NCBI GenBank assembly: GCA_963605535.1
Contig: CAVCXB010000003.1
Location: 19,797-83,796, forward strand
Direction: 5' to 3'
DNA: 64,000 bases
Origin: Wujia chipingensis
Lineage (GTDB): Bacteria; Bacillota; Clostridia; Lachnospirales; Lachnospiraceae
A program made the translations under genes and the position numbers. Below the pieces are notes generated by a model that saw nothing but the letters and a program-made list of their open reading frames with translations, searched no databases and had not been told where the DNA came from. Below are positions 16,611 to 34,613 of this stretch, in pieces. Positions within the stretch are counted from its first letter, which is position 1, and every line of letters starts with the position of its first letter.

Positions 16611-17630
16611 TTACATGAAGTGTTTCATGGCCTCATTTCGGTCAACATAATACGTACTGTTGAGGTCTTTGTCAGGGTCGAATACGTACTCGTCAAGGTG
16701 CAATTTGCCGTCTGCGTACTCGACTTTCGACGCGTGCCGGATACGTATTCCTGGGGCGGAGTACCAATAGTCTTTATAGATTCTATGTGTTGCCGCCGGG
16801 GTGTTGCTGTCTGATCCGTTCTGCTCATTGACCTCTCTGTACGTATTGCCGGATGCTGTTGTGTACGTAGACGATCCAGCGACGATGTCAAACAGGCTTT
16901 CGATTCTTGTATCGCAGTGTTCAGGGTCGGTGCAGTCGATGATCTTTCTCGGCTGGTCTGGAACCTCTTCGGCATCAGCCAATCCGGCGAGACGTGAATT
17001 GAGTCCGAGATTGAATGACTGCACACCGATGTCAGGTGCTGCACGCACGACATCGACGGGCGTCGATCCTCTCAGCACGAACACCTTCCCATTCCGGTCA
17101 CGGAACTCCGCTGCGTACTGGTACGTAGCCGGCGTGTCGCCGGCATGGTCTCTCTCGCCATGCATCTCTTTCGTGTTGCTTGAGCAGCTGTCGATGTACG
17201 TAATCTCGTAATCCTCGTCCAGAACTCTGCTGAGAAGCTGGGGGTAATCGATGAGCGCTCCCCTGTTGTATAGGCTGTATACGTATTCGAGGAACTCGTG
17301 TACGCACAGGATCGTGATCTTCTTCTGCGGCATGGGTGATACGACCATCACGTTGCATCTCGTACCCTCCGGATTCCTGCAGTCGGCCTGGCATAGATAC
17401 CAGTAGATCATCGACCCTGCTGGAACGAGGATGTCATCCTCTCCGCACGGCGCATCCATTGAGCTGCGCTTGATGTAGATATCACGGCAGACCCATAGCG
17501 ACTGCGGGAACTTTCCAAGCATGTCTACGTACTCATGCATACGATTCCAATCCTCGCCGCCATCATAGAACCATCTGTCGATTTCTTTGTACATGTCCTG
17601 CCGAAGCAGGGTGTTTTCCTGTTTTGCCAT
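16611..17630 (-). CDS. hypothetical protein
   Basis: start MAKQENT at 17630 after AAAGGAG. Confidence 0.8.
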   Translation of the reverse strand: MAKQENTLLRQDMYKEIDRWFYDGGEDWNRMHEYVDMLGKFPQSLWVCRDIYIKRSSMDAPCGEDDILVPAGSMIYWYLCQADCRNPEGTRCNVMVVSPMPQKKITILCVHEFLEYVYSLYNRGALIDYPQLLSRVLDEDYEITYIDSCSSNTKEMHGERDHAGDTPATYQYAAEFRDRNGKVFVLRGSTPVDVVRAAPDIGVQSFNLGLNSRLAGLADAEEVPDQPRKIIDCTDPEHCDTRIESLFDIVAGSSTYTTASGNTYREVNEQNGSDSNTPAATHRIYKDYWYSAPGIRIRHASKVEYADGKLHLDEYVFDPDKDLNSTYYVDRNEAMKHFM

Positions 17631-17680
17631 TCTGTCAATCTCCTTTTTCCATCCGCCATTATTATATACCAAATGTCAAC

Positions 17681-17708
17681 AAAAGAAAAGGGGTATCTCT
17701 ACCCCTTC
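17681..17708 (-). terminator. intrinsic terminator
   Basis: AAGGGGTA-GAGA-TACCCCTT then TTCTTTT on minus strand. Confidence 0.7.
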
Positions 17709-18193
17709 GTCTTATAGCGTCTTTCGATCTTTAGCATATATCTTATGCGATGATACGTACTGCCGCTGGCTTGATGGACTGTCGTCGACTTGATGATTCG
17801 ATCGAACGTCATGCCATTGAACGAAAGAAGCGCATGTACGCATTCTGCGGGATCTGAATGAATCTTCGCGCATCTGGATTCGTCCAGCACATAGATGCGC
17901 ATGAACTCCTCCAATACGCACAGCATCTTGGATTTATCGCTGATATACAAATCGAAGTATCCCAGCACGTCGACATACGGATCGAATGTCGGCGGCATCT
18001 TGTGCTTGGTGCCGTAGAGATCCTGCATCCAATCCTCGCTCAGCGCTTCACGGATGTAGAATCTTATGTACGTATCATCAATCAATTTGCATGAGATGGT
18101 TATACGTACTGGATAGAATCCATCGGTTGTGCGAATGATTCCACACAGGTTATCATCATTGATGGATGATGTATATCTTTCCATGAAGAACAT
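17699..18193 (-). CDS. hypothetical protein (DGYYP paralog family)
   Basis: TTDGFYPVRI motif shared with neighbours. Confidence 0.7.
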   Translation of the reverse strand: MFFMERYTSSINDDNLCGIIRTTDGFYPVRITISCKLIDDTYIRFYIREALSEDWMQDLYGTKHKMPPTFDPYVDVLGYFDLYISDKSKMLCVLEEFMRIYVLDESRCAKIHSDPAECVHALLSFNGMTFDRIIKSTTVHQASGSTYHRIRYMLKIERRYKTKG

Positions 18194-18194
18194 C

Positions 18195-18701
18195 TTACTT
18201 GTCTTCTTTCACCGGAAGCACGTTGAACGCGCCATCCTTATCCGGTACATCGACATTCAACACAGCTTCATCGAAATCCTGATTACCTTCAACAACGCCG
18301 CACACTGTGGGAAAGATTTCTTTTAGCTTTTCGGCGAGGATCTTTGCGCACTCGTCTATTCGGCTGCGAAGCTCGCTCTGTACGCATTCCTTGAACTCCT
18401 TCCATGGCGATTCATCGCATGGGATGACATCATCCCCGCAGCGAAGCTCGGAGTTCCCAATCGACTTCCTGTCGCCGACGAGGGTGAGTGTGATGGTTGG
18501 GCAGCCTTCTGCATCGAGCTTGAGGCATCCACGTGCCGTAGGCACGCATCCGTTGAGCTCAACATCGATAATCGGGTAGAACCCGAACGCCTCGTCAAGC
18601 AGCATGTCCTTCGATATGCTGATGTCGAAGCTTCTTGAATCTGATTCCTCGCTGGCTTTGCTTGGGGCAATCTGCAGTACGTATTTCGAATAATCTGTCA
18701 T
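18195..18701 (-). CDS. hypothetical protein (possible DGYYP-family member)
   Basis: AAAGGA SD; FGFYPII motif. Confidence 0.75.
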   Translation of the reverse strand: MTDYSKYVLQIAPSKASEESDSRSFDISISKDMLLDEAFGFYPIIDVELNGCVPTARGCLKLDAEGCPTITLTLVGDRKSIGNSELRCGDDVIPCDESPWKEFKECVQSELRSRIDECAKILAEKLKEIFPTVCGVVEGNQDFDEAVLNVDVPDKDGAFNVLPVKEDK

Positions 18702-18719
18702 AGTTTCAATTTATCCTTT

Positions 18720-19841
18720 CTATTCTATCGGCTTCATCTTATTGACGTCCGGAAGATTGCATGCCTTCGCTTCGGTCTCATCGACAACGCTGTATTTCCT
18801 GTACGTAGTGATGCCATCCGTCATCCTGATACTCTTCATCCAGAATCTGATCTCATGGGATCTGTAATCATTCAGGCGCTGTACGTATTCATCACGTGGC
18901 ATGTCCATACGTACTGGATTCATGTCACCGGCCATCTGAGCCAAATCACGCATCATATGGAATCGGGACCTGATGTCATTGTTCCTGAGTACGTACGGAC
19001 TGTCTTCGCAAATCCAATATGTGTTCGCAATCTTGCGTCCATTGAAGTCGATTCCGTTGCCGAGCGCTGCACGCTTCAGGGTGATTCTCGTCTGCGTCTT
19101 CTGGAATTCCAATTCGATCTTAAGCCGGATGGGGTAGTATCCATCCTGGCTGAATGCCGGATCGCATACGGCGAGTTCCCTGAGTGGTGGAATATCAAAT
19201 AGATTTTCCTCTGTATTCACATACATATCAAGGGCAGAATCGAGCCTGGATGCCGTCTCTGCGTCGACGATGTCTCGGTAGAGGCCATCAACACGTAGCT
19301 GCAGATTGTCTTGCGGCAAGGTGATGTGCCCGTGCTGTACGTAGAGCCAGCATGCCTTTCCAACAAGAACGTCTCTCAGTTCCTGATTTATCAGTCCAGC
19401 ATCAAGCTCACTCTGCGGGATGTACTCGAACGGATTTCTATACGTACTGTCAATGAGCTTCAGGCGCCTGAGATTCTCGAAGCATGAGTTCCACGGCGAC
19501 GCCTTGATGTACGTAGTGATGGTGAGCGCCTTTCCCCCATTGATTATCCTGTACGTATCACCAGCCGAGAAATCCTTGCTCAGCACAATCGGACTTGCCT
19601 TGAGGATGATTTGATTCATCGCTCCGAAGTGGCGCATTCCGATATGATAAACACTGCTGTCAACGGCTGATATGACATCCTTGATGATGCAATGGTAATA
19701 TCCGTCTATCAGCCTGTCGTCCTGATACATCATTCTGCTGACGAGGAATTTCTTTGCGAATCGACATCCCCATTCCTGGATTGATCGGAGGAGGTCGTCC
19801 CTCATCTCCTTCTCTTTTCCTGCGAATTCCTCCGTCGTCAT
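18720..19841 (-). CDS. hypothetical protein with two DGYYP-family domains
   Basis: IDGYYHCII and QDGYYPIRL...GNGIDFNGRKI. Confidence 0.8.
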   Translation of the reverse strand: MTTEEFAGKEKEMRDDLLRSIQEWGCRFAKKFLVSRMMYQDDRLIDGYYHCIIKDVISAVDSSVYHIGMRHFGAMNQIILKASPIVLSKDFSAGDTYRIINGGKALTITTYIKASPWNSCFENLRRLKLIDSTYRNPFEYIPQSELDAGLINQELRDVLVGKACWLYVQHGHITLPQDNLQLRVDGLYRDIVDAETASRLDSALDMYVNTEENLFDIPPLRELAVCDPAFSQDGYYPIRLKIELEFQKTQTRITLKRAALGNGIDFNGRKIANTYWICEDSPYVLRNNDIRSRFHMMRDLAQMAGDMNPVRMDMPRDEYVQRLNDYRSHEIRFWMKSIRMTDGITTYRKYSVVDETEAKACNLPDVNKMKPIE

Positions 19842-20362
19842 AAGTTGATCTCCGGCAATCCAAGCTTATCTGCGCATGACTTCGGTACGTAATCGAACCA
19901 TGTTACGTATCCATCCGGCTTCTCGATGGTTTTGATGCGTATATAGAACTTCATACGTATATTCTTCGCCAGGCTGCGGCTGAGCTCATCCACATCACCT
20001 TTGGTTACGGTGCGGTTCTGGAAATGGGTGCGTATGTCCTGAATGAACTCCATGCTGTCTTTGGTATTCGCATTGGTGCCATACGTTGCGATGGTGTTGA
20101 TGTCTTTGATTAGAATGTCGAACATGCTCTGATTCGGATGAAGGATGCGTATCTTATCGATTATGCGATTCCCGTAGTTGCTGATGACATTGCCGAAGAG
20201 ATCGATTCCATCGCCAAGGATACGTACTGTTTCGGTGACCATCGGCTTGTGGCTGCCTGAGACACCGCATCTTGCCATATACAGAACGGCAGGATAGTAT
20301 CCGTCGATGATCGGATTTGTTTCCACTTCCGGAAACCTATGCGTGCTGAAATGCTCTATCAT
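19838..20362 (-). CDS. hypothetical protein (DGYYP paralog family)
   Basis: IDGYYPAVL...ILGDGIDLFGNVI...FYIRIKT. Confidence 0.8.
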   Translation of the reverse strand: MIEHFSTHRFPEVETNPIIDGYYPAVLYMARCGVSGSHKPMVTETVRILGDGIDLFGNVISNYGNRIIDKIRILHPNQSMFDILIKDINTIATYGTNANTKDSMEFIQDIRTHFQNRTVTKGDVDELSRSLAKNIRMKFYIRIKTIEKPDGYVTWFDYVPKSCADKLGLPEINL

Positions 20363-20901
20363 GATCTGTTCAATTCCTCCAGTCCCAGCGCCTTCACATC
20401 CTCATGTTTGACATACTCATACACTGTCTTGTACGTATTGGGCAGTTCAACCGTCGTGATACGTACATAGAAGACAGTCTCGATTCCGCCGATTCTACAC
20501 TGTGCAAACGTTTTGATCGCGGAATCGGGCATGATGATGTCCGCTGCTATATGACGGATATTGAGATATTTATCATGGTCGGGCTCATACATCGCGATGC
20601 AGACGAGATGATCGTATAGCCTATAGTCTATTCTTTCATCATCTCCGTCATTGATTCCGAAGGTCTTGCCGATGCAGTCGACATCGGGAATCTTGTTTCC
20701 GTGGAAATCAATTCCCTGCCCGACGATGCGCAATTTCTCGACAATGGCGATGTGCCCCGTCTGTTTGATCGTACATATCGACGCGCCAACAATGCGACAC
20801 GGATAGTATCCGTCAGTGATGTGGTATGGATTGATGTCATGTGTGTGCAGGGTGGCGTTCCTGATGCCTTTTGACAAATCATCGTACATGTGGCTGGACA
20901 T
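20359..20901 (-). CDS. hypothetical protein (DGYYP paralog family)
   Basis: TDGYYPCRI...IVGQGIDFHGNKI...FYVRITT; AAAGGAG SD. Confidence 0.8.
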   Translation of the reverse strand: MSSHMYDDLSKGIRNATLHTHDINPYHITDGYYPCRIVGASICTIKQTGHIAIVEKLRIVGQGIDFHGNKIPDVDCIGKTFGINDGDDERIDYRLYDHLVCIAMYEPDHDKYLNIRHIAADIIMPDSAIKTFAQCRIGGIETVFYVRITTVELPNTYKTVYEYVKHEDVKALGLEELNRS

Positions 20902-20928
20902 AGCTGATTCTCCTTTCCATTCTGATTC

Positions 20929-21180
20929 CTACTCGAAGTCGTACGTACGGCAGTCTTTCCTGAACTGATTCGAATCTTTGCCGGTAATCATACGTACTGC
21001 TTCATCCATATCATCTGTCGGCACTTCATACGTACAGCCGAATCCGACGCTGTCGTAATACACGACTGTCTTTCCATCCCAGCACTGCGATGGCGAATAG
21101 CTGCAATAGCTCCTATCCACCTTTGCATTGAGCTTCGCACGAAGCTCCTCGAGAATTCTCATCTTTGCTTCTTCTGTCAT
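20929..21180 (-). CDS. hypothetical protein
   Basis: start MTEEAK after GGAGG. Confidence 0.7.
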   Translation of the reverse strand: MTEEAKMRILEELRAKLNAKVDRSYCSYSPSQCWDGKTVVYYDSVGFGCTYEVPTDDMDEAVRMITGKDSNQFRKDCRTYDFE

Positions 21181-21182
21181 TT

Positions 21183-21764
21183 CTAATTGTCCTCCAAGAG
21201 CTTTTGCTGTGCGTATCGGATGATCGCAATCCAGCACAGGAAATGTTCCTTCAGTTTCCATCCCCAGCGCTGGGCGAGTTCCCACACGTCCGGGTCGATG
21301 ATATCAGCTATCAAATTGACGAACTCTATCGCCGAGGTCGTGCCATCGACTTCCTCGAGGCTCCCTTCGACATCCTCGTCATCCCAGGCATCACCGACGG
21401 TATTCCTATTGATGCTGTTCTCTTTGAAGTATTCCTTCACATCCTCGATGAATTTCCCGGGGTCGAACTCATATGGCTCTCCGGCCTCAACCTTTTCCGC
21501 GATGTAATCGGCGTTGAACTCTCGGGTTCCGATGTCTTCCAGATAGACATGCCACCAGTTCTTGCCAAGCACATACGTACTGTAATCGCCATAGCAGAGA
21601 ATCTTATACTGATTCCCCTTCTCGATGACATCGATATATGATGTATACGCTCCATACTTGAACACGATATTCGTCATGTTTCCTTGCTTATCCAGTACGT
21701 ACTGAACAGTGGCACCATTCTTCTTGAACGTCTCTGTCAGTTCTTCAATGCAATCCATTGCCAT
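21183..21764 (-). CDS. hypothetical phage protein
   Basis: start MAMDC after AAAGGAG. Confidence 0.75.
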   Translation of the reverse strand: MAMDCIEELTETFKKNGATVQYVLDKQGNMTNIVFKYGAYTSYIDVIEKGNQYKILCYGDYSTYVLGKNWWHVYLEDIGTREFNADYIAEKVEAGEPYEFDPGKFIEDVKEYFKENSINRNTVGDAWDDEDVEGSLEEVDGTTSAIEFVNLIADIIDPDVWELAQRWGWKLKEHFLCWIAIIRYAQQKLLEDN

Positions 21765-21921
21765 CTTTCTTCTCCTTTTCCAATACATACAAGTACTCTT
21801 TTTCCGTGAGCTCGACGATGTACGTGATTTCCTTCACATGCTTCTTCACATCGAACTCATGATACGGACCGAATGATTCCCATACAGTCTTTCTTCTGTG
21901 TCTGATTTTAAGCGTCTTCAT
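21745..21921 (-). CDS. small hypothetical protein (58 aa, not in ORF track)
   Basis: AAAGGA SD then MKTLKIRHRRKTVWESFGPY...GNGLH*. Confidence 0.65.
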   Translation of the reverse strand: MKTLKIRHRRKTVWESFGPYHEFDVKKHVKEITYIVELTEKEYLYVLEKEKKDGNGLH

Positions 21922-21995
21922 CTTATTTCCTTTCTATACGTAATGCCTTCCTCCTGGCTGCGCCCGATGGCGCACCAGGATTTGGGCTATACGTA

Positions 21996-23451: not shown

Positions 23452-24279
23452 CTAATAGTTCATAATCAATAGTTCATCAACCATGTGCCTCCTTGTCCCT
23501 GTCGAACCGACTGAGTGTCTCACCTGAAGCGATTCGATTCTGTACTTGGCGTAGCGTGTACGTATGAACTCGGTGTTGGCGTTGGACATCATACACAGAA
23601 CGCCTTTCGCTGTGAGCGAATCGAACAGATTGGCAAGCCTCTCCTGCTCTTCCCTGCAGAATCCGAACTTCGTATAGTCATTGAACATCTTTCCGTCTTC
23701 GGAATCATACGGCGGATCGAAGTACACGAAGTCATTCTTTGAAGCATCAATCACTGCATACGTATAGTTCACATTGATGATTTGGATGTCATTCCCAGAG
23801 AGGTACTTATGGATGTTGTCGAGGTTTTTCTTCGTGTAGATGATGGCACTCATATCCTTTCCATACGGGACATTGAAGTATCCATCCTTATTCACACGGT
23901 ACAGACCATTGAATCCGGTCTTATTCAGATAGATGAATCGCGCCGCACGTATGAACGGCTCAGTCTCCAGGAAATCCGCCTTGCGATCGAGCGCACGGAT
24001 CTGCCTATACGTATCTGCACTGTTGAGGGACTGATAATTCCTCAGCATCGGGATGAGATACTTATACTGCGTGGCATCCTTTATGGTTCTGTACGTATTG
24101 ATGAGCTCAGGATTGAGATCGTTTATGACAGCCTTCGGGGGCTGAAGCCTGAATAACAGAGCTCCTGATCCGAGAAATGCCTCGTAGTACGTATTGAATG
24201 AGGCGGGAACATGCTTGATGAGTCGATCAACACATCTCGATTTGCCTCCGACCCATTTGATGAACGGTTTCATTTCCAT
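23452..24279 (-). CDS. dam: Dam/D12-class N6-adenine DNA methyltransferase
   Basis: KPFIKWVGGK, YYEAFLGSGA, NDLNPELIN, FNGLYRVN, FNVPYG, VYFDPPY. Confidence 0.93.
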   Translation of the reverse strand: MEMKPFIKWVGGKSRCVDRLIKHVPASFNTYYEAFLGSGALLFRLQPPKAVINDLNPELINTYRTIKDATQYKYLIPMLRNYQSLNSADTYRQIRALDRKADFLETEPFIRAARFIYLNKTGFNGLYRVNKDGYFNVPYGKDMSAIIYTKKNLDNIHKYLSGNDIQIINVNYTYAVIDASKNDFVYFDPPYDSEDGKMFNDYTKFGFCREEQERLANLFDSLTAKGVLCMMSNANTEFIRTRYAKYRIESLQVRHSVGSTGTRRHMVDELLIMNY

Positions 24280-26175: not shown

Positions 26176-26204
26176 ATTATATCAATTGGATAATCAAATG
26201 TCAA
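26176..26204 (-). promoter_or_regulatory. sigmaA-type promoter
   Basis: TTGACA-17 nt-TG.TATAAT. Confidence 0.85.
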
Positions 26205-26206
26205 CA

Positions 26207-26240
26207 AGAAAAAAGACCCGCGGTGGATGAATCCGCGGGC
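26207..26240 (-). terminator. intrinsic terminator
   Basis: CCCGCGG/CCGCGGG stem then TCTTTTTTCTT on minus strand. Confidence 0.8.
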
Positions 26241-26300
26241 GTAATGGAAAAAGAAGCTAATGGAATACCATCTATTTTGAAAGAGAGAAATAAATGATAC
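26207..26300 (-). ncRNA. candidate small RNA C (~95 nt, anti-RBS seed)
   Basis: promoter at 26307-26335, terminator at 26207-26240, seed CATTTATTTCTCTCTTTC. Confidence 0.5.
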
Positions 26301-26306
26301 TTTATT

Positions 26307-26335
26307 ATATTAGCATCTTTCTGTACGTATGTCAA
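26307..26335 (-). promoter_or_regulatory. promoter for candidate sRNA C, with TACGTACAG in its spacer
   Basis: TTGACA-TACGTACAGAAAGATGC-TAATAT. Confidence 0.6.
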
Positions 26336-27051: not shown

Positions 27052-28179
27052 CTACTTACTGCTCTTATGACGGTTACAGTCTTTACACAGCATCTGAAGA
27101 TTGTCATACGTAGTATGACCGCCTTCGCACCATGGCTTGATATGATCCCCCTCCATCTCGGAATACTCATAGTGCTTGCCGCATATTGGACAATAGCCCC
27201 CCTGTTCCAAATACTTCTTCTGCTTCATCGCATCTGTGAACTGACGGATGTTCAGGACGGATTCTTTCGTGCCTCTGCTCAATACGTACTCGATGATTCC
27301 GACATTACGTACATCATCGTCGAGAATCAATTTTGCAATCTCAGATTCCAATTCGTCTGGGTTGTATTCCTCATCCTTATACGTATTGTATAGGATTCCC
27401 CACGCCTGTGCATCCGTGATTCCTTTTCTGTACGTAGGGAAGAGGCTCTGTGCCCATCGCATCACATCTTTATAATAGTTCCACAACTCATCAACGGACG
27501 TATCATTCTGATGCTTAGACATATAATCTTCAATCTTCTTCAGTCCTTCATCATTCGCCTTCCACTGATACACCTGCTCGAGAATCTCCTGACGGATTGG
27601 ATTGCCTCGTACGTATTTCTCGAATCCACCTTTTTTTGCTGGGCACCCGTTTTTGCTGAAGCGATCTCTGCACATAGTAACCCATTCACCTGAATACACT
27701 GCATTGAGGATCTCCTGGTCGGTGAGTTTCTCCCCGGTGAGATTGATTGTACGGAACCAATTCAGCCTATCCTCCGCTGCCCCTCTGCATTCGAAGACCA
27801 TCAGCTCATATTTGCGAATTGCATCTGCTGTCTCCGGATATGCCGTAAGCATGTTGCTGAATGTGCATGGCGATCCGTTATATGTGATTGCATACTGATT
27901 GTCTACGTACTGGCAGATGCTGATGGTTCTCTGCTGTCCGTCGATGAGATCCCATACCTCGGCATCATTCGACTTTCCCCAATACATGTTGCCGATTGGG
28001 TATCCTTTGATTACGGACTGGACAACTGCCTCTCTCTTCTTGTTGTCGTAGACAAACTCCCTCTGGTACGCTGGACGAACGTTCAGCTTGCCATTGTATG
28101 CGACAACTCCGCCGAAGATGGTGTCTCTGAAGCCCCTGCTCAACTGATCGACTGTTACGTACTTCTTTTGAATCTTCAT
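27052..28179 (-). CDS. DUF262 (GmrS-like) + HNH endonuclease
   Basis: YQRE, LIDGQQR, FRTIN..G.KL; CPIC...GDHIKPW..GG.T..NLQMLC..CN; start 28179. Confidence 0.9.
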   Translation of the reverse strand: MKIQKKYVTVDQLSRGFRDTIFGGVVAYNGKLNVRPAYQREFVYDNKKREAVVQSVIKGYPIGNMYWGKSNDAEVWDLIDGQQRTISICQYVDNQYAITYNGSPCTFSNMLTAYPETADAIRKYELMVFECRGAAEDRLNWFRTINLTGEKLTDQEILNAVYSGEWVTMCRDRFSKNGCPAKKGGFEKYVRGNPIRQEILEQVYQWKANDEGLKKIEDYMSKHQNDTSVDELWNYYKDVMRWAQSLFPTYRKGITDAQAWGILYNTYKDEEYNPDELESEIAKLILDDDVRNVGIIEYVLSRGTKESVLNIRQFTDAMKQKKYLEQGGYCPICGKHYEYSEMEGDHIKPWCEGGHTTYDNLQMLCKDCNRHKSSK

Positions 28180-28180
28180 T

Positions 28181-29113
28181 TTACTTTTCCTCCTTGATGA
28201 TTCTACGAATAAAGATGCGGGCGTATGTTGCCTTGCCATTGATGTTTGTCTTGAAATCATCATCAGCTGAAGACTTTGTACCACAATAGATCTTTCTGAT
28301 GATGTCGTCTTTATCCCAACCTTGACTTCCTAATATCTCAAACTCCTCAGGGTTATATTTGGTTAAGAACGTAACCGGCACACCCATGACTCCGAAATAG
28401 TCTTCAGGAATGTCAGACACCTTATCGACATTGATGGCATCATAATTGTCATACTTCTTATACAGTTCAGGACTGTCCTTGACCGTACGTGTGAAGATGA
28501 ACTTCTCACGCTGTGTTTCAACCGGCAAAGTGGTGAACCAATTGATGTTTCCAAACTTCTTTGATGTGCCATCAGGCAACTTGAATTCCTTCACAGGATT
28601 ATATCCAATACGTATTACATTACGCTTAATCAATGGGAAAATCTCTTTGTAGGTGACAGCATTATAATTCCCGATGATCAAGAAATCTTTCTTGTGCTCC
28701 AATAACGTTGTTACGTAGGATCTGAACAGACTGAATGGTGGATTGGTTACGACGATGTCTGCTCTATCCAACAGTCTCAGGCATTCTTCGATTGCGTAAT
28801 CTCCGTTTCCCTTTAACGAGTACATCCTTCCCATCCCACAGTCGATGTCATTTTCACCGCGATAGTTCAGTACGTACGATGAACCATTTGGTTCATAGTG
28901 TGTGCTGACGAGTTCCTTCAGTCCAAAGGTGTTGAAGTAGATGTGGAAGTACTTCCAGAAGTTCGACCATTTCGGATCATCGCAGTTGCAGAAGATCGTC
29001 TTCCCTTTGAAGTACGTACGATAATTCCAGCACTCTTCTTGGATATCTTCCAGTCTCGTATAGAACTCATCATTCTTCTCTACCTTGGCTTTGTTCATGT
29101 TCTTGTTGCTCAT
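28181..29113 (-). CDS. EcoRI-family adenine-specific DNA methyltransferase
   Basis: KNDEFYT, FCNCDDP, VVTNPPFSLFR, YDNYDAINV, MGVPVTFL. Confidence 0.9.
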   Translation of the reverse strand: MSNKNMNKAKVEKNDEFYTRLEDIQEECWNYRTYFKGKTIFCNCDDPKWSNFWKYFHIYFNTFGLKELVSTHYEPNGSSYVLNYRGENDIDCGMGRMYSLKGNGDYAIEECLRLLDRADIVVTNPPFSLFRSYVTTLLEHKKDFLIIGNYNAVTYKEIFPLIKRNVIRIGYNPVKEFKLPDGTSKKFGNINWFTTLPVETQREKFIFTRTVKDSPELYKKYDNYDAINVDKVSDIPEDYFGVMGVPVTFLTKYNPEEFEILGSQGWDKDDIIRKIYCGTKSSADDDFKTNINGKATYARIFIRRIIKEEK

Positions 29114-29143
29114 GATACGTGTTGCTCCTTTCCTCCTCGTGCG

Positions 29144-29401
29144 TTAGCCGAGGATATGCCTCTTCATCTTAGCCTGTCTGATGATCTTGTGTCCCTCGAT
29201 GGTGAATGCGATTGTGTAGCAGGTGATATTCTCATCATCGTCATGGGCGACTGATTTCGAATCGATCTTATCTCCTAGACGGACATCCTTCTCGAAGAGG
29301 CCACGGACATAGTCCGTGGCCTCTTCATACGTATCGAACACTTCGACCTCAGGGTCGAGTCTGTTGTCCGAATGGACAACACTGTAGACTTTGCTTGTCA
29401 T
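29144..29401 (-). CDS. hypothetical protein
   Basis: GGAGG SD, ATGA coupling. Confidence 0.7.
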   Translation of the reverse strand: MTSKVYSVVHSDNRLDPEVEVFDTYEEATDYVRGLFEKDVRLGDKIDSKSVAHDDDENITCYTIAFTIEGHKIIRQAKMKRHILG

Positions 29402-30222
29402 CTGGATACCAAATCCTCCTTGTTTTCTTCGACATACTTCACGGCTTCTTCAATGGATACGTACTGAAGACGATCCTTCAGTCCTGTTCCTGACGCTGGA
29501 TACTTCTCACGGATATACTCCGCTGGATTTTTAATGTAATTATGGATACATTTGAACAGATAGAGTTGCCACTCATCTGCGGTAAGTCGCTTATAGTTGA
29601 AGCCCAGCAGGTGTTCTCTATTCTTGTTTATCACTCCTCCAGCATCATCATCTTCAACGGTATCGGCATCAAACACTTCATACGTATGCGGATTCCAGAA
29701 TCCATACGTACACCCTTTGATGAACTCCAGGGGATTATCATCTGACGAATGGTCAACGGCATCGACATTGCAGGGTTCCCTATCCCAACTGATGTTCGTC
29801 ACGTAATAATCTGTGCAGTCACCGTTTGTGTAGTAATACTGGAAATCCTCAGCATAGTATCCATACGTATTGGATAGCCAGTCCGCGATTCCTTGATCGG
29901 TGTCGACATCACTGGGGATGGCACTGACTGGAATCTCGACCTCACTCGGAAGATCCGCATCATCGTATACGAACAGCTCGGTGAACTCTTTGTCATTGAT
30001 GTAATCTTGCAGTGCGTACTGCGCATCGAGGATTTGCCCCTCCGTTGGATTCTTTACGTAGTCGGACACGACAATCTCTGCATAGGCTTTGTCGATGTCC
30101 TCGAAGAGTTTCTTGGCTTCCGCCCACTCCTCTTTGGTGAACACGCCAGTCTCGACGAGAATGTCGTGACTGTACGTACTCAGCCTGTGATTCAACTCCT
30201 GTAGTAATTTTTTGGTTAGCAT
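29398..30222 (-). CDS. hypothetical protein
   Basis: AAAGGAGGT SD. Confidence 0.8.
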   Translation of the reverse strand: MLTKKLLQELNHRLSTYSHDILVETGVFTKEEWAEAKKLFEDIDKAYAEIVVSDYVKNPTEGQILDAQYALQDYINDKEFTELFVYDDADLPSEVEIPVSAIPSDVDTDQGIADWLSNTYGYYAEDFQYYYTNGDCTDYYVTNISWDREPCNVDAVDHSSDDNPLEFIKGCTYGFWNPHTYEVFDADTVEDDDAGGVINKNREHLLGFNYKRLTADEWQLYLFKCIHNYIKNPAEYIREKYPASGTGLKDRLQYVSIEEAVKYVEENKEDLVSR

Positions 30223-30761
30223 CTGTCTTTACCTCCTTTTTCAAAGAAATGCTTCTTCCACTTCGTCAGCTCTTCTTCTGTACGTATCTTCTCGAAGTCT
30301 TCCAGATAAATCCCATCCGATCCTATCAATGTACCCTCCTTATACACTGCGAACTCGAATTGACCGTCTTCATACAGCCATATGTGCGCGTCATATGGAT
30401 GATCGCTGAGGCCATATATGAATATGGCTTGGCTACGTGTCATCTGAGGTACGAGACCTTCTACGACAATATTGCCATCGGAACAGAATCCGTGCTGTTC
30501 GAGCATCTCTCCTGCCAATCCATCTTCATTCATATCAGTCCATTCCTCTATACGTATGCGCCCATTCTCATTGAAGAGAATCATTCCACGGGTGTTGCCT
30601 TTGCACTGCAACGAATACGTACAGCCAGCATAGTCGATATCAATGATATTTCTGCCATACCAGATGTTGTCTCTCTGCTTGCCCGTCAGGATCCTTTTGT
30701 CATAGACCGTGACTTTCGCGAAGCGTCTAATCGCTTCAACTGCTTCCATCATTGCTGTCAT
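30216..30761 (-). CDS. hypothetical protein
   Basis: operon packing. Confidence 0.7.
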   Translation of the reverse strand: MTAMMEAVEAIRRFAKVTVYDKRILTGKQRDNIWYGRNIIDIDYAGCTYSLQCKGNTRGMILFNENGRIRIEEWTDMNEDGLAGEMLEQHGFCSDGNIVVEGLVPQMTRSQAIFIYGLSDHPYDAHIWLYEDGQFEFAVYKEGTLIGSDGIYLEDFEKIRTEEELTKWKKHFFEKGGKDRC

Positions 30762-30779
30762 TGTGTCATTCTCCTTTCA

Positions 30780-31460
30780 TTACCACATCTTATCTCCGAA
30801 CGCCGTTATCACAGCGATCTTATCATTGACAGTTGATTTGTATTCTGCATTCCCTGGTGAAGGAATTCCGCTTAGGATATCTGGAACATCCATCGTCGGA
30901 TCAATCTCACTGTGTAAGTAATCCGCCATTCGGTTCAGTTCATCATCTGTTCCTCCGAAGAAGACTTGCTTATACGTATTTGTTCCTTCTTTATAGATCT
31001 CAACGACAAATCGAGCCGTCGGGAACCACACATCACTGGTATCTGTATTGTAATAGACTCCAATCAACGGATTATACGCCAGTGCGTACATCTTAAGCAG
31101 AGGATATTGATCTTCCAGAAGGGTTTGTATCGGGTTATACGCCGTACAATACGTAGCCACCGTTGTTATCTTTACATACGGCAGGACAACGTTTCCTTTA
31201 ACATCCCTTTCAAGCAGTTCAATTCTTTTGACGAGAGTTCCACAGCACGCATCATAGATGCATTTATTGACCAAATCCATCTTCGTATACCCTAATACAA
31301 AAAAGAAATCCTCCAAGGTATAATTGATTCCTGCAAGATGTCTGCTACGTATTGCGTCTAACGGGCTCTCACCATCGAACCCTGCGGTTATATTATTGTA
31401 TAACTCCAACAACGAACATGTATCTCCTGTTATTACATACGTAATATTCATTACTGACAT
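30780..31460 (-). CDS. divergent YubB ferredoxin-like protein
   Basis: TYVITG...ITT....YPLLKMYALAYNPLIGVYYNTD pattern; start 31460 after AAAGGAG. Confidence 0.55.
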   Translation of the reverse strand: MSVMNITYVITGDTCSLLELYNNITAGFDGESPLDAIRSRHLAGINYTLEDFFFVLGYTKMDLVNKCIYDACCGTLVKRIELLERDVKGNVVLPYVKITTVATYCTAYNPIQTLLEDQYPLLKMYALAYNPLIGVYYNTDTSDVWFPTARFVVEIYKEGTNTYKQVFFGGTDDELNRMADYLHSEIDPTMDVPDILSGIPSPGNAEYKSTVNDKIAVITAFGDKMW

Positions 31461-31537
31461 GTCTGATTTCTCCTTTTCTATTTTATATTTACTGCCGTCT
31501 GGCGGTGCGGGCAATCACCCGCGCCCCATTCGGCATT

Positions 31538-31906
31538 CTACGTATGAGCACTGATGACGATGATCCAATCCTCATCATCAATCTCTTTTGGCTCTACGTA
31601 CCGACAATCATCTGCACATCTTGTTACGAGTGCATACTTCCCTTGGAAGAGTGTTGGACCTGACTCAGAGATATGCTCTCTGCAGTCATACCCATTCCAC
31701 TTATTGTTGATCTCTTTGACATCTACGTACCGACCAGAGATCGCCTTGCCATGACATCCGTCATCCCAACAGCGATAATAATAATCGCACACACCGAACA
31801 CACCATCCCACGTGAACATCTCACGGTTGGCTTCGATGAAGTCTTGACACTCCTCGATTGTCTGGAACTCATCATGGCGCATCACAACCAATCCCAACTC
31901 AGTCAT
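31538..31906 (-). CDS. hypothetical protein
   Basis: AAAGGAGG SD. Confidence 0.75.
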   Translation of the reverse strand: MTELGLVVMRHDEFQTIEECQDFIEANREMFTWDGVFGVCDYYYRCWDDGCHGKAISGRYVDVKEINNKWNGYDCREHISESGPTLFQGKYALVTRCADDCRYVEPKEIDDEDWIIVISAHT

Positions 31907-31944
31907 TATTGTTTTCCTCCTTTATAATTCCTTACGTCGCCACA

Positions 31945-32025
31945 GATACAGAAACAGCCCCAACACTATCCATGCTAGGGCTGTCTCCGCAAAGGAAATA
32001 AAATGTCAAAAGTCAATCGCTTGAC
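31945..32025 (-). ncRNA. candidate small RNA D or regulatory leader (anti-RBS seed)
   Basis: promoter at 32032-32060; seed GACATTTTATTTCCTTT; 12-bp G.U-containing stem ACAGCCCTAGCA/TGTTGGGGCTGT then TTCTGT. Confidence 0.45.
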
Positions 32026-32031
32026 AATGAT

Positions 32032-32060
32032 ATTCTACTACCTCACAATCTAAATGTCAA
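32032..32060 (-). promoter_or_regulatory. sigmaA-type promoter
   Basis: TTGACA-17 nt-TAGAAT. Confidence 0.8.
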
Positions 32061-32644
32061 CAGATATCTTCGTCGTATGGCAGAATTCTGCAGTCATAGC
32101 AGTCTGCGTTGAAGGTGTGGTCAGTCTTCGACTCTACGTAGAAGAGTCTATCCTCACTGCGCATCGTCTCTAACCCATAATTCCACTGAGCGTTAAGCGT
32201 ATCCACCTTCGTCAGAATGAACTTCGCACACACTGCTGAGATGAGTTGGTACGTATCAAGAATTCCGCGCGTGATCCGAAGTGTATCATTGCCCTTTGAT
32301 ATAAGGGTGCACGTATTTGTCTCAGTCAGGACAGCGTGACCCTTGATACGTAATGCCTCAGCCAAATCCCGATCATCCGTACCGATAATGTTCGCCTCAT
32401 TCAGCAACTGAAGATCACCTTCGAACTCCATCAGAATCGGAGGATTCACCATTCTTCTCAATGGCGTGGGGTAATCCTTATCTATGATGCACGTATACGT
32501 ATGAGTCCTATCATACTCGTCGGCTTCATCGATATACTGCTTCTCGACCTTGCGCTTCTCATTAAGCGCCTTTATCATCTCTTCATAGTCCCAACCGCAC
32601 TGAATGTACAGTGCCATGACAATTTGTTTAGCCGTGTTGACCAT
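32057..32644 (-). CDS. truncated/divergent DprA(Smf)-like protein
   Basis: IIDKDYPTPLRRMVNPPILMEFEGDLQLLN matches DprA D..YP..L....PP..L...G...L; core AIVG.R and SG.A.GID motifs not seen. Confidence 0.6.
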   Translation of the reverse strand: MVNTAKQIVMALYIQCGWDYEEMIKALNEKRKVEKQYIDEADEYDRTHTYTCIIDKDYPTPLRRMVNPPILMEFEGDLQLLNEANIIGTDDRDLAEALRIKGHAVLTETNTCTLISKGNDTLRITRGILDTYQLISAVCAKFILTKVDTLNAQWNYGLETMRSEDRLFYVESKTDHTFNADCYDCRILPYDEDIC

Positions 32645-32684
32645 TTCTTTTTTTCCTTTCTATACGTACTGATGCTGGCGGACG

Positions 32685-33305
32685 TCAGTCCCCAGCCTCA
32701 GTACCATCCAACACTTCATACGTATCGACTTCGGGATTCACTGCACAGCCACCCCACGTGCCATGGAGCTGTCCCTCATCATCAACAGATTCGACAATAC
32801 CCTCCTTTCCATCATACTGAGATTCACCCTCCATATGGATGATACGTATCTTCGTCGGGAAGTCATCGATATCCATCGTTGGCTCAGGATACATCAGTCT
32901 CGACGTATACGTAACACCGTCATCACCCTTCTTATACTCAATCATCTCTTCAATCCCCACACCCGGTTCTGTCGAATGGATGATGAGTTTGATGACACCA
33001 CAATCCTTGCAGAGCTCCTTCAGTGAAAGATGCTGTTCGGTATACGTATACCCCAACACCTTCGACTTCTCGAACGTAGGATAGATGAGATTGCGAATTG
33101 TCCATTTGCATTCGATGTTGAATTTGTAGTACGTATTCATCGCATTCGTATCATAATCCACCATCTCATCGAAGTAGCAATCCAACGTTGTTGGAGTCTT
33201 CCTTGCGTTGAAGTACTCATCACTTCCCGGAAAAGCCTCCATGAACTTCGTGAAGTTCTCTGTCGGCATCACGACCGCAACGGTCGTTAAAGTCAAATTA
33301 GCCAT
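32685..33305 (-). CDS. YubB-like N-terminus fused to DUF4314-like C-terminus
   Basis: MANL...ECKW...STEPGVG; C-terminal GIVESVDDEGQLHGTWG. Confidence 0.65.
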   Translation of the reverse strand: MANLTLTTVAVVMPTENFTKFMEAFPGSDEYFNARKTPTTLDCYFDEMVDYDTNAMNTYYKFNIECKWTIRNLIYPTFEKSKVLGYTYTEQHLSLKELCKDCGVIKLIIHSTEPGVGIEEMIEYKKGDDGVTYTSRLMYPEPTMDIDDFPTKIRIIHMEGESQYDGKEGIVESVDDEGQLHGTWGGCAVNPEVDTYEVLDGTEAGD

Positions 33306-33319
33306 AATCTCTTTCCTCC

Positions 33320-33601
33320 TTACGCTAATTCTTTACGTATATCGTCCCAACTGAACGGCTTCATCCCAAACCAATCCTCGGATTTAGCATAATCGTCTGC
33401 ATTCCACAGGGCAAAACCCTTTCCATTATTGTATTCGAGCATCATTGGATACGTATTGCACACATCCTTGAGGGGTTTATACGCATTGATTCCGATTTTA
33501 CCCAACATATTCACGAACTGAGAGAATTCGATGATGTTTTGGATAATAATTGTATTGCATCCACTGAGGAATGTCACTACTTTCGAGTCATAAGTTACCA
33601 T
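33320..33601 (-). CDS. hypothetical protein
   Basis: AAAGGA SD. Confidence 0.7.
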   Translation of the reverse strand: MVTYDSKVVTFLSGCNTIIIQNIIEFSQFVNMLGKIGINAYKPLKDVCNTYPMMLEYNNGKGFALWNADDYAKSEDWFGMKPFSWDDIRKELA

Positions 33602-34061
33602 TTTCTTTTTCCTTTCTTTGTTTCTTGTTATGCTTCTGATTCACCTGACGGACCAACTCTGCCTTGGCGTACGTATGAGTCTCCTCATTGATGATGCGCT
33701 TGATCTGATATGCGGATCCGCCATCGTGGTTATACGTACTGACGCAGAGCTCATCATTATCTTCATAGACATCGACATCATCCTGATTGTGGATTGCCTT
33801 CAGGATCGCATCCTTGACATCATCGAAGTGATATTGGTCTGCAATCTGATACTCTCCATTCCATCTACGTACTGTACCGAGAAGGGCGACAGGATAGTCA
33901 TAATCCTTGAGGAAGTCCATGAGATCATTCCAACCATTCTCTACGTATTCATCAACGTCTTCCCTATCAGGCTCACGATCGATACAGGCACGGATCTCAT
34001 CCTTCATCTGCTTCAGCTCTTCTTCGGTATACAGACCGAATGTCTTGAACAAAGTGATCAT
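33588..34061 (-). CDS. hypothetical protein
   Basis: start MITLFK after AGGAGG. Confidence 0.75.
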   Translation of the reverse strand: MITLFKTFGLYTEEELKQMKDEIRACIDREPDREDVDEYVENGWNDLMDFLKDYDYPVALLGTVRRWNGEYQIADQYHFDDVKDAILKAIHNQDDVDVYEDNDELCVSTYNHDGGSAYQIKRIINEETHTYAKAELVRQVNQKHNKKQRKEKENGNL

Positions 34062-34083
34062 TGTGTTTCCTCCTTCCACTTTA

Positions 34084-34539
34084 TCAGTCATGGTTGTTCC
34101 ACATATCATCAAGATACGTATACCAACCAACGCCATCCCTATCATCGGCATTCTCATTCCACCAAACATTGAATGCCGAGTTGATTGCGTCGATAAACGC
34201 TTCATACTTCTCATCGGTAAGACCCATCTTCTTCTTGAATTCATCCTTCGTATACGCACGGATTGGCGTTGCATCGATGTCATTCAAGGTAATCTCGGTA
34301 ACCGTGAGGCAATCCCTATTCCCTGAGAAATCGTAGCAATCCTCTTCGGCATTCGGGCTCATGGATGAGTACGATAATTCAAGGGCGAGTCTATCGTTGA
34401 TGTCGAAATGGATGGCAATTTCGTAGTCAGGCCAATCAACATTGACCTCCTCGAAAAAGAAGGTGCCATTGCTGATGGCACCATCGATAAATTCGTATTC
34501 GGTAACTTTACCGTCAAATTCAAGTCTAAGATTGTTCAT
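34084..34539 (-). CDS. acidic hypothetical protein
   Basis: AAAGGA SD. Confidence 0.75.
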   Translation of the reverse strand: MNNLRLEFDGKVTEYEFIDGAISNGTFFFEEVNVDWPDYEIAIHFDINDRLALELSYSSMSPNAEEDCYDFSGNRDCLTVTEITLNDIDATPIRAYTKDEFKKKMGLTDEKYEAFIDAINSAFNVWWNENADDRDGVGWYTYLDDMWNNHD

Positions 34540-34613
34540 TTAATTTTTCCTTTCATTTTTATGAACTATACGTATCGGATTGAGCAGTTTACCCACTTAC
34601 TCAGGTGCAGGCA

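Follow-up and report, generated by a model that had tools for sequence, protein, structure and literature searches.

A sharply bounded TACGTA array in the accessory arm of a novel tailed phage

The palindrome TACGTA is a real, sharply bounded, cis-type signal in the DNA analysed here, and it is not driven by coding. The window (the whole stretch analysed, 64,000 nucleotides) belongs to an 88-kb contig of a novel, uncultured tailed phage whose genome measures 88 kb or more. Positions 16651..34574, called the domain below, carry 106 copies at a mean spacing of 170.6 bp over about 28-30 co-directional minus-strand genes. This saturation of 18 kb by one motif points to some putative factor that handles the segment as a unit. 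Tentatively, at somewhat less than even chances, the domain is regarded as an array of double-stranded DNA recognition sites maintained by selection, through which a putative symmetric factor marks or coats the accessory arm.

Results

Number and density of TACGTA

The window contains 148 TACGTA, against a mean of 6.60 (sd 2.75, largest 14) in 100 dinucleotide-preserving shuffles, none of which reaches 148. The copies are distributed as follows: 19 before 16651, 106 in the domain, one at 34969 and 22 from 44446 on; the scan of 34975-44445 (9,471 bp) found none. The counts of the original prediction (about 105 in the domain, 19 to the left, about 20 to the right, none in 34975-44445) hold. The whole contig has 173 copies, of which 67 are spread over the about 70 kb outside the domain. 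Density is 5.9 per kb in the domain, about 1 per kb in the remaining contig, 0 across the 9.5 kb adjoining the domain and 0.087 per kb in the other 284 contigs of the assembly (298 copies in 3.44 Mb), as expected from the claim of a non-uniform, bounded density.

That the whole contig carries TACGTA at about 10 times the chance level had been missed. To the left and right of the domain the enrichment is about 10-fold, as it is in the oppositely transcribed late genes; structural genes have about 1 copy per kb.

The abundance of the motif in the host, proposed earlier as a check, proves low: in the co-binned bacterial genome, the observed/expected ratio is 0.78, TACGTA ranks 26th of the 64 palindromic hexamers and shows no flank preference. 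TACGTA is not a host feature, the host being assigned by binning only. With the same reservation on the host, a Chi-like or uptake-type host word was rejected: it would need enrichment in the host chromosome.

Boundaries and composition

On the left, the domain is bounded by 1.8 kb of AT-rich non-coding DNA (14768..16610) with AAATGARCA iterons, perfect 20-21-bp hairpins and only 2 TACGTA. On the right, it ends at a 74-bp gene junction (34540..34613, minus strand), which includes a ribosome-binding site and the first array site (34569-34574); a terminator-like match was sought inside this junction and none was found. The TACGTA-free zone (34975..44445) would hold about 9 copies at the out-of-domain rate of the contig. 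It contains minus-strand CobS-like AAA_5 ATPase genes, the spacer between divergent genes at around 39.7-40.0 kb and, ahead of the portal gene, the first genes on the plus strand.

Two promoter matches on the minus strand lie in the domain. One is a perfect consensus (26176..26204, TTGACA-17-TATAAT) and faces the genes from 26006 to 16611. The other is sigma-70-like (26307..26335, TTGACA-17-TAATAT, with TG); TACGTA occupies 26324-26329, directly after the -35 hexamer, and the motif is thus found in a promoter spacer, as had been claimed. This site abutting the -35 element is counted for a reading on duplex DNA. Judged only by its gene content and promoter matches, the leftward accessory arm is probably early.

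In base composition the contig is a mosaic (GC 37% to 63%). Its two GC-rich islands are alike (r = 0.80) and unlike the core; an intermediate composition is found in the left half of the domain. The 34.6-39.9 kb part of the free zone has the tetranucleotide signature of the core (r = 0.86-0.88).

Independence from coding

A codon-preserving null had been named beforehand as the refutation test. The excess outlives it: the 26 domain coding sequences (16,296 bp) have 96 TACGTA, against 17.7 ± 3.7 after synonymous-codon shuffling (largest of 500: 37), so the original prediction is not refuted; codon permutation gives 4.8 ± 2.2. Domain sites fall in the three frames 29, 20 and 50 times, plus 7 intergenic sites; outside the domain, the same preference is found (21/11/28). 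The 7 intergenic sites of 106 lie in 956 bp (5.3% of the span), and the share of sites tracks length. Together with the codon nulls, these frames and intergenic sites bear out the view that amino-acid need does not explain the motif. TACGTA is placed uniformly along the genes, and 26 of the 28 listed domain genes have at least one copy.

Spacing is more regular than random (CV 0.746, against 0.989 by chance; P = 0.0012). Sites are always at least 18 bp apart, although an exponential with the observed mean predicts about 10 closer pairs; the widest gap is 622 bp (P = 0.034). Regular spacing and the lack of pairs below 18 bp fit selection for coverage with a footprint, not independent mutational creation. 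Conserved enzymes within the domain have 4.3-7.1 TACGTA per kb; ORFans and accessory genes outside it have 0-1.8 per kb. Position, not gene type, sets the density.

Flanking bases

The extended form RTACGTAY is found at 69 of the 106 domain sites. Extended copies had been claimed, and on the plus strand of the domain CTGTACGTA and TACGTACTG each occur 17 times. The flanks at ±1 are complementary (R at 87/106, Y at 84/106), as are those at ±3 (C and G, each at 44/106). The ±1 preference is present in all three frames and in spacers; the ±3 excess exceeds the phase- and neighbour-matched background. The perfect palindromic core and complementary ±1 and ±3 flanks are counted for a symmetric duplex reader. 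The only perfect 12-bp palindrome, CAGTACGTACTG, lies within a gene at 21693..21704, where it had been reported.

The flanks are not fully palindromic, a point missed earlier. On the sense strand, A is found 50 times at -2 (25.4 expected) and 47 times at +2 (27.9 expected); T is not raised. A symmetric dimer alone is therefore insufficient as an explanation, and this asymmetry leaves RNA-level reading open.

Genes of the domain and their homologues

The domain includes genes for an EcoRI-family N6-adenine methyltransferase (28181..29113, minus strand; 4 TACGTA), a DUF262(GmrSD_N)-HNH nuclease (27052..28179, minus strand; 8 TACGTA), a Dam-family (D12) methyltransferase (23452..24279, minus strand; 5 TACGTA) and a 373-aa ORFan (18720..19841, minus strand; 8 TACGTA). 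The motif does occur inside acquired genes, as had been proposed for the first three. The EcoRI-family and DUF262-HNH genes match, over their full length, type II methyltransferase and type II restriction enzyme models (E 2.4e-95 and 7.8e-105), and the pair is kept in 10 of 11 bacterial loci. These models assign an enzyme class and no recognition sequence. The phage copy of this type II restriction-modification cassette carries 12 TACGTA in 2.06 kb; the 11 bacterial loci together have 4 over 43.5 kb. The Dam-family protein has its nearest matches in DpnM and EcoDam, both GATC enzymes, and the phage Dam product is predicted from this likeness to be GATC-like; none of its 5 sites could be encoded in either enzyme.

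Among 117 distant homologues of the DUF262-HNH protein, the share able to encode the motif at the 8 sites is 0, 68, 16, 16, 7, 7, 23 and 4; 7 of the 8 sites are at positions where few could. Site conservation among close relatives was judged from peptides, not from nucleotide sequence. At this level, the 94% homologue is motif-compatible at 8/8 sites, the 66% homologue keeps 5/8 (8 YV+TY dipeptides) and the 61% homologue keeps 1/8 (3 such dipeptides; distant mean 2.48). The two known homologues of the ORFan (85% and 81% identity) are also compatible at 8/8 places, by peptide; no incompatible change is found in its 17 critical residues, which is weak alone (chance roughly 0.03-0.07). The coding changes that create TACGTA are amino-acid replacements common only to close relatives. 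TACGTA is thus imposed on conserved enzyme genes by amino-acid replacement, against protein conservation, and the array is restricted to the phage lineage.

Search for a reader

A DNA-binding domain was sought in the scanned ORFs of the domain and free zone (Pfam, PHROGs, NCBIfam, PADLOC) and none was found; nor was a candidate TACGTA reader found. None of the results identifies a protein that coats, shields or pulls in the segment, as had been suggested, or methylation at TACGTA. Of two atlas look-ups, one gave a CobS-like ATPase and the other no match. Family scans of ORFs gave no ParB-, Noc- or MatP-like protein and no repressor or HTH match. The scanned ORFs yielded neither a C5-methyltransferase nor a Vsr-type nuclease. 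The restriction enzyme, through its GmrSD_N domain, gives the sole ParB/Srx-related match.

Discussion

Comparison with known systems

The array resembles HIP1 and yet is bounded to one region and borne by a phage. Like HIP1 (GCGATCGC) and other cyanobacterial iterated palindromes, TACGTA is a short palindrome with a CpG-type centre, in excess by one to two orders of magnitude and found in and between genes. Of the features expected of a HIP-type sequence, TACGTA shows over-representation of a short palindrome (the threshold being about 15-fold) and presence within and between ORFs whatever the frame; it is not spread over the entire genome, its density falling into classes of 5.9 per kb, about 1 per kb and 0. 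According to PMC5861425, HIP1 is maintained by selection and genome-wide in cellular chromosomes, with a periodicity of 10-90 kb. By contrast, TACGTA is a phage 6-8-mer, dense in one 18-kb block, about five-fold less dense elsewhere and absent from the 9.5-kb neighbour; no cognate methyltransferase was found for it. The likeness to HIP1 drawn in the original prediction therefore stands for the phenomenon (over-representation, frame independence, presence in and between genes).

The palindromes of matS/MatP, NBS/Noc, SBS/SlmA and parS/ParB define a bounded chromosomal region and are read by a dimeric protein. These sites (12-16 bp) number tens per megabase-scale domain and have known readers; parS is a palindrome of about 16 bp that occurs in few copies close to the gene for a ParB-family CTPase. 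TACGTA is like them in that the presence or absence of palindromic sites delimits a region, and unlike them in being 6-8 bp long at 5.9 per kb. The original parS-like reading fails: the site is too short at 6-8 bp, its 106 copies lie in genes and no ParB-type protein is found by Pfam.

Chi, DNA uptake sequences and GATC for MutH are short words that stay dense and rather evenly distributed in every frame, since a DNA-processing machine must have one close by. The coverage by TACGTA is similarly dense, regular and independent of frame. TACGTA differs from Chi and uptake sequences, which are asymmetric words with an excess in the host chromosome: it is palindromic and shows no enrichment in the co-binned bacterial genome.

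Cluster A mycobacteriophages have stoperators, described in PMC9283540 as dispersed short sites at which an L5 gp71-type repressor halts transcription past promoters and silences arms. The same source describes them as asymmetric 13-mers, bound by a monomer and numbering more than 20 to a genome; they lie in promoters or short gaps between genes and are oriented with transcription. The TACGTA array shares with them the dispersal of many copies of one short site in a phage genome; it differs in consisting of 106 palindromic 6-8-mers, 99 of them in coding sequence. A stoperator-type array was rejected on these grounds and because no repressor or HTH match was found; only the weak ±2 sense bias is oriented.

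Proposed reading and alternatives

In the preferred reading, each recognition site would have a TACGTA core, preferably extended to RTACGTAY and to a C at -3 and a G at +3. Selection would retain these sites across every gene, frame and spacer of the leftward-transcribed, ORFan-rich accessory arm. The reader would be a symmetric (dimeric) sequence-specific factor on double-stranded DNA, presumably a protein and more likely encoded by the phage than by the host. By forming a dense coat of nucleoprotein or successive roadblocks, it may silence, time or shield the arm; elsewhere in the genome the marks would be about five-fold sparser, and the 9.5 kb next to the domain would have none. Since structural genes also bear about 1 TACGTA per kb, pure shut-off of early genes is not an explanation.

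The unlikely alternative of an RNA-level signal takes UACGUA (sense CAR-UACGUA-YAG) in long leftward transcripts as the functional unit. It has two variants, which share this low probability: a site that a sequence-specific endoribonuclease or RNA-binding protein would cleave or bind, leading to programmed decay of arm mRNAs, for which T4 RegB is the precedent; or a self-complementary element by which transcripts pair with themselves or one another. As domain genes are all co-directional, every site is transcribed in a single sense, and the ±2 preference (A on both sides) is strand-specific. Regular spacing, with a site in nearly all listed genes, suits one hit per cistron. Depletion of sense UACAUA in the phage and 3 PemK/MazF genes in the assembly are a separate sign of RNase selection. 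A single-stranded site, however, needs no palindrome (64 of 4096 hexamers are palindromic), and the ±1 and ±3 flanks are complementary too, although self-pairing of two copies would also account for the latter. Predicted hairpin loops hold 19.8% of sites, a weak excess over random positions (9.2%); no RNase gene is recognised on the contig; and the oppositely transcribed late genes are enriched as well.

About equally improbable is a HIP1-like molecular drive, in which a motif-specific methyltransferase and methylation-directed short-patch mismatch repair produce functionless TACGTA from near-motifs. A palindrome with a central CpG is of the type read by methyltransferases, and two methyltransferase genes lie inside the domain; Elhai 2015 reportedly proposed a link of iterated palindromes to cognate methyltransferases in cyanobacteria. 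The matching frame preferences in and out of the domain suggest one process at two intensities. Such a drive should, however, affect the whole replicon instead of ending at two gene junctions and leaving out 9.5 kb, and should make sites independent of their neighbours, yet their spacing is under-dispersed. The transition neighbours TACATA/TATGTA show no joint depletion (11, against about 15), depletion being found in the sense form only; the scanned ORFs gave no C5-methyltransferase and no Vsr-type nuclease, and Dam appears GATC-like. For HIP1 itself, selection and not biased repair is concluded in PMC5861425.

Less probable still, TACGTA is the target of the phage-borne type II cassette and the array a set of methylation marks; discrimination of kin or self from other DNA, or addiction, are suggested uses, of the same small probability. 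The cassette lies inside the domain, its genes match type II models at full length and are conserved as a pair, and 6-bp palindromes are typical of type II sites. Accumulation of the site nevertheless runs counter to the rule that genomes normally avoid the site of their own restriction enzyme, and EcoRI-family methyltransferases are known for AATT-core sites. In a small sample with distant homologues, no consistent depletion is found: for five bacterial genomes that carry the cassette, TACGTA/ATGCAT is 0.24, 0.25, 0.05, 0.64 and 0.42, and for five that lack it, 0.16, 0.29, 0.34, 0.11 and 0.08.

There is a comparably slight chance that the boundaries are historical, the three density classes reflecting the residence time of mosaic modules under a genome-wide TACGTA pressure on the lineage. 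The mosaic composition (GC range, GC-rich islands unlike the core, intermediate left half of the domain) and edges at gene junctions, as with module exchanges, would fit. The free zone at 34.6-39.9 kb, however, is not recent-looking, since its tetranucleotide signature is that of the core; mobile genes of the domain (restriction-modification cassette, Dam) are saturated like their neighbours; portal (86% and 79% identity to nearest relatives) and domain proteins (85% and 81%) are similarly diverged; and the nature of the pressure is left unexplained.

An artefact (a chimeric assembly, or base calls that are systematically wrong where the motif is modified) is highly improbable: the assembly is of metagenome type (285 contigs) and judged from consensus, not reads, but frames are intact across all sites, the residues that encode the motif are seen again in independently assembled sequences (homologues at 94%, 85% and 81% identity; identical proteins on record from 5-6 contigs) and enrichment continues on either side of the domain.

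Biological meaning

A bolder and more doubtful extension of the preferred reading is that the phage splits its own chromosome into physical domains by an iterated palindrome, a reader on RTACGTAY about every 170 bp forming a distinct nucleoprotein domain. If so, this nucleoprotein domain would govern the timing of expression of the arm and its visibility to host defences, and the adjacent motif-free 9.5 kb would stay outside it. The pressure for TACGTA would be strong enough to rewrite conserved enzymes, and the array would be a phage-scale analogue of matS/MatP or Noc territories.

Phage contig and gene arms

C3, the contig that carries the window (its bases 19797-83796), is 88,143 bp long, in an assembly of 285 contigs, 3.53 Mb and 45% GC. 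It represents all or most of the genome of a tailed phage. A portal is encoded at 44989-46746; further structural proteins are a Dit-like tail protein, baseplate J, hub proteins, a tail fibre with an S74 chaperone domain and a head protease, and a DUF5906 primase-helicase-type protein is encoded outside the window. Both contig ends fall within ORFs and bacterial flank is absent. Most C3 proteins lack a family match, and the closest isolated phages have a portal identity of just ~25%. Left of ~39.8 kb nearly all genes are on the minus strand, right of it on the plus strand, and the cumulative GC skew turns at the same point. The intervening divergent region (39697-39991) is GC-rich, contains the words TCTAGGCAGCC and TCAGCGCCC in repeated copies as well as a hairpin of 12 bp, and has no Rfam match.

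The tetranucleotide composition of C3 is mosaic. Two GC-rich islands (52-63% GC; 5600-14800 and 39900-44900) are found within the 37-45% GC phage; their signatures correlate with each other (r = 0.80) but not with the core (r ~0.15). They contain a SNF2-type helicase, a class-3 lipase-like gene and unannotated ORFs of 1024 and 902 aa. Tad2-like (anti-Thoeris) domains are found in two proteins, at 1675-1875 (-) and 3830-4330 (-) (E 8.4e-06, 5.4e-04), and a FolD-type gene at 4276-5334. Outside the window, at 15627-18223 of the C3 locus L001, an RVT_1 reverse transcriptase adjoins an LRR protein of the BspA type, an arrangement known from diversity-generating retroelements.

Abundance and distribution of TACGTA

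The window contains 148 TACGTA (6.6 ± 2.75 in shuffles): 19 before 16651, 106 in 16651-34574 (the block, within the accessory arm), 1 at 34969, 0 in 34975-44445 (the free zone) and 22 beyond. Three levels are found on one molecule: 5.9/kb in the block, ~1/kb elsewhere on C3 and zero over the adjoining 9.5 kb. The high copy number and sharp bounds of the original prediction are thus both recovered, and density is not uniform. C3 as a whole has 173 copies; in the remaining 284 contigs there are 298 in 3.44 Mb. Outside the block TACGTA is still ~10x chance and again the top-scoring hexamer. At this out-of-domain rate (67 sites in ~70 kb) ~9 copies are expected in the free zone and 0 were found, so that its emptiness is real relative to the phage, though not to random DNA.

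Coding constraints and imposition on genes

Block sites occur in frame 0 (Tyr-Val, 29), frame 1 (x-Arg-x, 20), frame 2 (Thr-Tyr, 50) and spacers (7); the 956 intergenic bases, 5.3% of the block span, hold 6.6% of sites. When synonymous codons are shuffled within genes, 17.7 ± 3.7 sites remain of the 96 observed; codon permutation leaves 4.8 ± 2.2. The gap between the two nulls indicates that the amino-acid sequences themselves are enriched in motif-compatible peptides. Amino-acid need had been judged an insufficient cause and is one: the excess survives the synonymous null, and all frames and spacers are used. Nor did the enrichment vanish under a codon-preserving null, the test to which the prediction had been tied. 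No longer repeat unit around the hexamer, and no tRNA or Rfam family behind it, was found; these were rejected as its source.

The DUF262-HNH nuclease gene (27052-28179, -; true length ~375 aa) carries 8 TACGTA. Among 117 homologues (~46-52% identity) the motif is encodable at these sites in 0, 68, 16, 16, 7, 7, 23 and 4, typical replacements being E/K/Q-I to Y-V, N-K-Y to N-T-Y, V-K-K to V-R-N and Y-L to Y-V. Sites are retained at 8/8 places in the 94% homologue, 5/8 in the 66% homologue (8 YV+TY dipeptides in all) and 1/8 in the 61% homologue (3 such dipeptides; distant-homologue mean, 2.48). DpnM and EcoDam, GATC enzymes of solved structure, could encode the motif at none of the five Dam sites, three of which were made by x-Tyr to Thr-Tyr at a conserved Tyr. 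The nuclease gene is carried by 11/400 same-order genomes (42-48% identity), with an EcoRI-family methyltransferase alongside in 10/11. At the DNA level these 11 bacterial loci (L305-L315) contain 4 TACGTA in 43.5 kb and the phage copy 12 in 2.06 kb. For the 373-aa ORFan (18720-19841, -), the sole two known homologues (85% and 81% identity) are motif-compatible at 8/8 places, a result that alone is marginally above chance. By these sequence comparisons the genes had the motif imposed on them, and in this lineage alone.

The ORFan belongs to a small paralogue family within the block (18720-20901, -): 19838-20362 and 20359-20901 share 29% identity over 170 aa; the latter also has a match in the C-terminal part of 18720-19841.

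Site anatomy and spacing

Plus-strand sites have the form C(-3) T(-2) R(-1) TACGTA Y(+1) T(+2) G(+3); each of the six flanking positions deviates from composition (P 3e-4 to 5e-14) and none past ±3. R/Y at ±1 is seen in every frame and in spacers, the Y after the motif being forced in frame 2 by stop codons. Counted in sense orientation, C at -3 is found 38 times where a background with the same codon phase and neighbouring base gives 22.2; the figures for G at +3 are 37 (22.8 expected), for A at -2 50 (25.4) and for A at +2 47 (27.9). By these counts 10/12 positions are palindromic and ±2 are not: the sense strand favours A on either side, CAG-TACGTA-CAG over CAG-TACGTA-CTG. C3 sites outside the block show a clear preference at ±1 only. 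Sites on bacterial contigs show neither flank preference nor extended palindromes, on which ground a host operator regulon was rejected.

Spacing in the block averages 170.6 bp, with a CV of 0.746 (0.989 for random placement; P = 0.0012). The smallest spacing is 18 bp; an exponential of equal mean would give ~10 closer pairs. Gaps reach 622 bp at most (895 expected; P = 0.034), and counts per kb have a variance/mean of 0.64. At least one site is present in 26/28 listed block genes. Helical or codon (3-bp) phasing of block sites was not found. Such under-dispersion speaks for selection towards coverage, locally saturated, and against independent mutational creation.

Block edges and promoters

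Conserved enzymes in the block have 4.3-7.1 sites/kb, much as their ORFan neighbours do; accessory genes and ORFans outside it have 0-1.8. Density depends on position, not on gene type. To the right the block ends at a gene junction of 74 bp, inside which there is no terminator-like match. To the left it stops at the end of gene 16611-17672, adjoining a non-coding region of 1.8 kb that has iterons and hairpins, in agreement with the predicted start of the domain at a structured region.

Each end of this AT-rich region (14768-16610) carries AAATGARCA iterons (14959-15022, 16422-16517). The region also contains hairpins of 20 and 21 bp, both perfect (15181-15227, 15308-15354), together with a pair of 52-nt inverted repeats, and is similar to a replication origin or some other control region.

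Sigma-70-like promoter matches within the block, one of them perfect and another with TACGTA abutting the -35 element (the motif in a promoter spacer had been noted before), indicate that the block is more than one transcription unit. A candidate small RNA (26205-26302, -) consists of a sigma-70-like promoter with TACGTA in its spacer, followed by ~90 nt with two hairpins and a U-tract end (-24.8 kcal/mol, z = -4.66; 0/200 shuffles as good). A perfect TTGACA-17-TATAAT promoter directly follows it (-).

Relatives and other TACGTA-rich loci

No match to the block was found by megablast against 50,697 phage records, and no relative by IMG/VR single-protein scans with three proteins or by a JGI metagenome scan with an alignment of the 373-aa protein. 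No portal match was found in 60 related genomes, and TACGTA excess is absent from 46 loci of portal relatives at 27-52% identity. Closer portal homologues (P0002-P0004) have 86-67% identity. A triple-site pattern scan of viral contigs returned at least 118 stretches. Five whole records from it share no noteworthy proteins with C3: four have local clusters, two of these with conserved longer flanks, and an unrelated SU10-like podovirus has 68 TACGTA spread evenly over 39 kb. Among the IMG/VR matches listed, at least 1 extra site/kb is found in 20/77 loci for TACGTA and 13/79 for the control ATGCAT, a similar yield, which indicates that TACGTA-rich loci are common. Among these same matches the maximum is ~2.8/kb over 7-10 kb for both words, mostly in local repeats, and none comes near 5.9/kb over 18 kb. 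The literature searched, largely without subscription journals, contained no description of such a role for TACGTA or of a comparable block in phages.

GGGCCC clusters were seen upstream of the portal in two portal relatives at ~51-52% identity, one of them from a contig of Roseburia faecis: 14 copies in L011 (3212-8740) and 10 in L046 (1803-7763), with an 11th at 18124. They were rejected as like arrays, being parts of GC-rich intergenic stem-loops rather than an intragenic hexamer array.

Possible functions of the block

The block is tentatively read as an array of recognition sites for a sequence-specific factor that would coat, block or mark the accessory arm. This reading is favoured because of the palindromic core and its complementary ±1/±3 flanks, the even spacing with exclusion and the positional boundaries. 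A symmetric dimer bound to duplex DNA would select for such a core and flanks, and the sites may be read in that way; even spacing and an exclusion distance suggest footprints and a need for coverage, and positional boundaries suggest a contiguous segment handled as a unit. The nearest precedents for such an array are stoperators in phages, as dispersed repressor sites (PMC9283540), and domain-marking palindromes in chromosomes. The arm may be early, and binding may silence or shield it. Family scans, relaxed thresholds included, detected no DNA-binding domain in the block or free-zone ORFs scanned, and two atlas look-ups for such a reader gave nothing usable. The free-zone AAA_5 protein is a CobS-like ATPase of phages.

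A signal acting in RNA is unlikely. The ±2 asymmetry and co-directional transcription are in its favour, as is an independent sign of RNase-driven selection, the depletion of sense-strand TACATA (UACAUA in mRNA); presentation in hairpin loops gave a weak signal and was rejected. Sense TACATA occurs once in domain genes (8.2 ± 2.5 expected) and 9 times in the rest of C3 (17.0 ± 3.7); antisense TACATA is not depleted (8 vs 9.4; 16 vs 19.3). The assembly has 3 PemK/MazF genes. One preprint gives UACAUA as the site that Bacillus subtilis MazF strictly requires, and there TACGTA serves as the one-base change for abolishing cleavage (bioRxiv 10.64898/2026.08.06.743204).

Methylation or repair drive of the type associated with HIP1, a highly iterated palindrome of cyanobacteria, is improbable to the same degree: it fits the kind of word and misfits the boundaries and spacing. 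No C5-methyltransferase or Vsr-type gene was seen in the ORFs scanned.

The original prediction had compared the array to HIP1 or parS. The likeness to HIP1 holds for the phenomenon, a highly iterated palindrome (PMC5861425), but HIP1 is genome-wide and the TACGTA block is not. The array does not belong with parS, Chi or uptake-type sites, nor with stoperators in the strict sense.

It is more doubtful still that the sites are targets of the phage's own restriction-modification cassette. If the cassette read TACGTA, bacteria carrying it might avoid the word; TACGTA/ATGCAT ratios (0.24, 0.25, 0.05, 0.64 and 0.42 in five carriers; 0.16, 0.29, 0.34, 0.11 and 0.08 in five non-carriers; a small sample with distant homologues) give no consistent signal. 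The type II cassette is complete (27052-29113, -): an EcoRI-family methyltransferase (28181-29113, -; PADLOC E 2.4e-95) precedes the DUF262-HNH restriction enzyme (27052-28179, -; E 7.8e-105), both full length, stop and start abutting. The best alignments of Dam are to GATC enzymes, and it retains K9, N120, L122, R124 and P134, the residues that contact GATC in EcoDam.

Purely historical boundaries are as doubtful as cassette targets, since the motif-free 34.6-39.9 kb has the core tetranucleotide signature (r = 0.86-0.88) and does not look recently arrived. An artefact is very improbable because independent assemblies share the motif-encoding residues.

Significance

The signal is real, strong and unusual, and its evolutionary signature is imposed, lineage-specific, positional and evenly spaced. 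Iterated palindromes such as HIP1 have been unexplained for decades, partly because they span whole genomes, in organisms slow to manipulate. The same kind of signal is now present in an 88-kb phage with an internal control (a saturated block, a thin remainder and a motif-free neighbour on one molecule) and a clear cost in protein sequence, which together make the question experimentally small. A reader, should there be one, would give phages a novel means of handling one segment of the genome as a whole, whether for timing, shielding or organisation.
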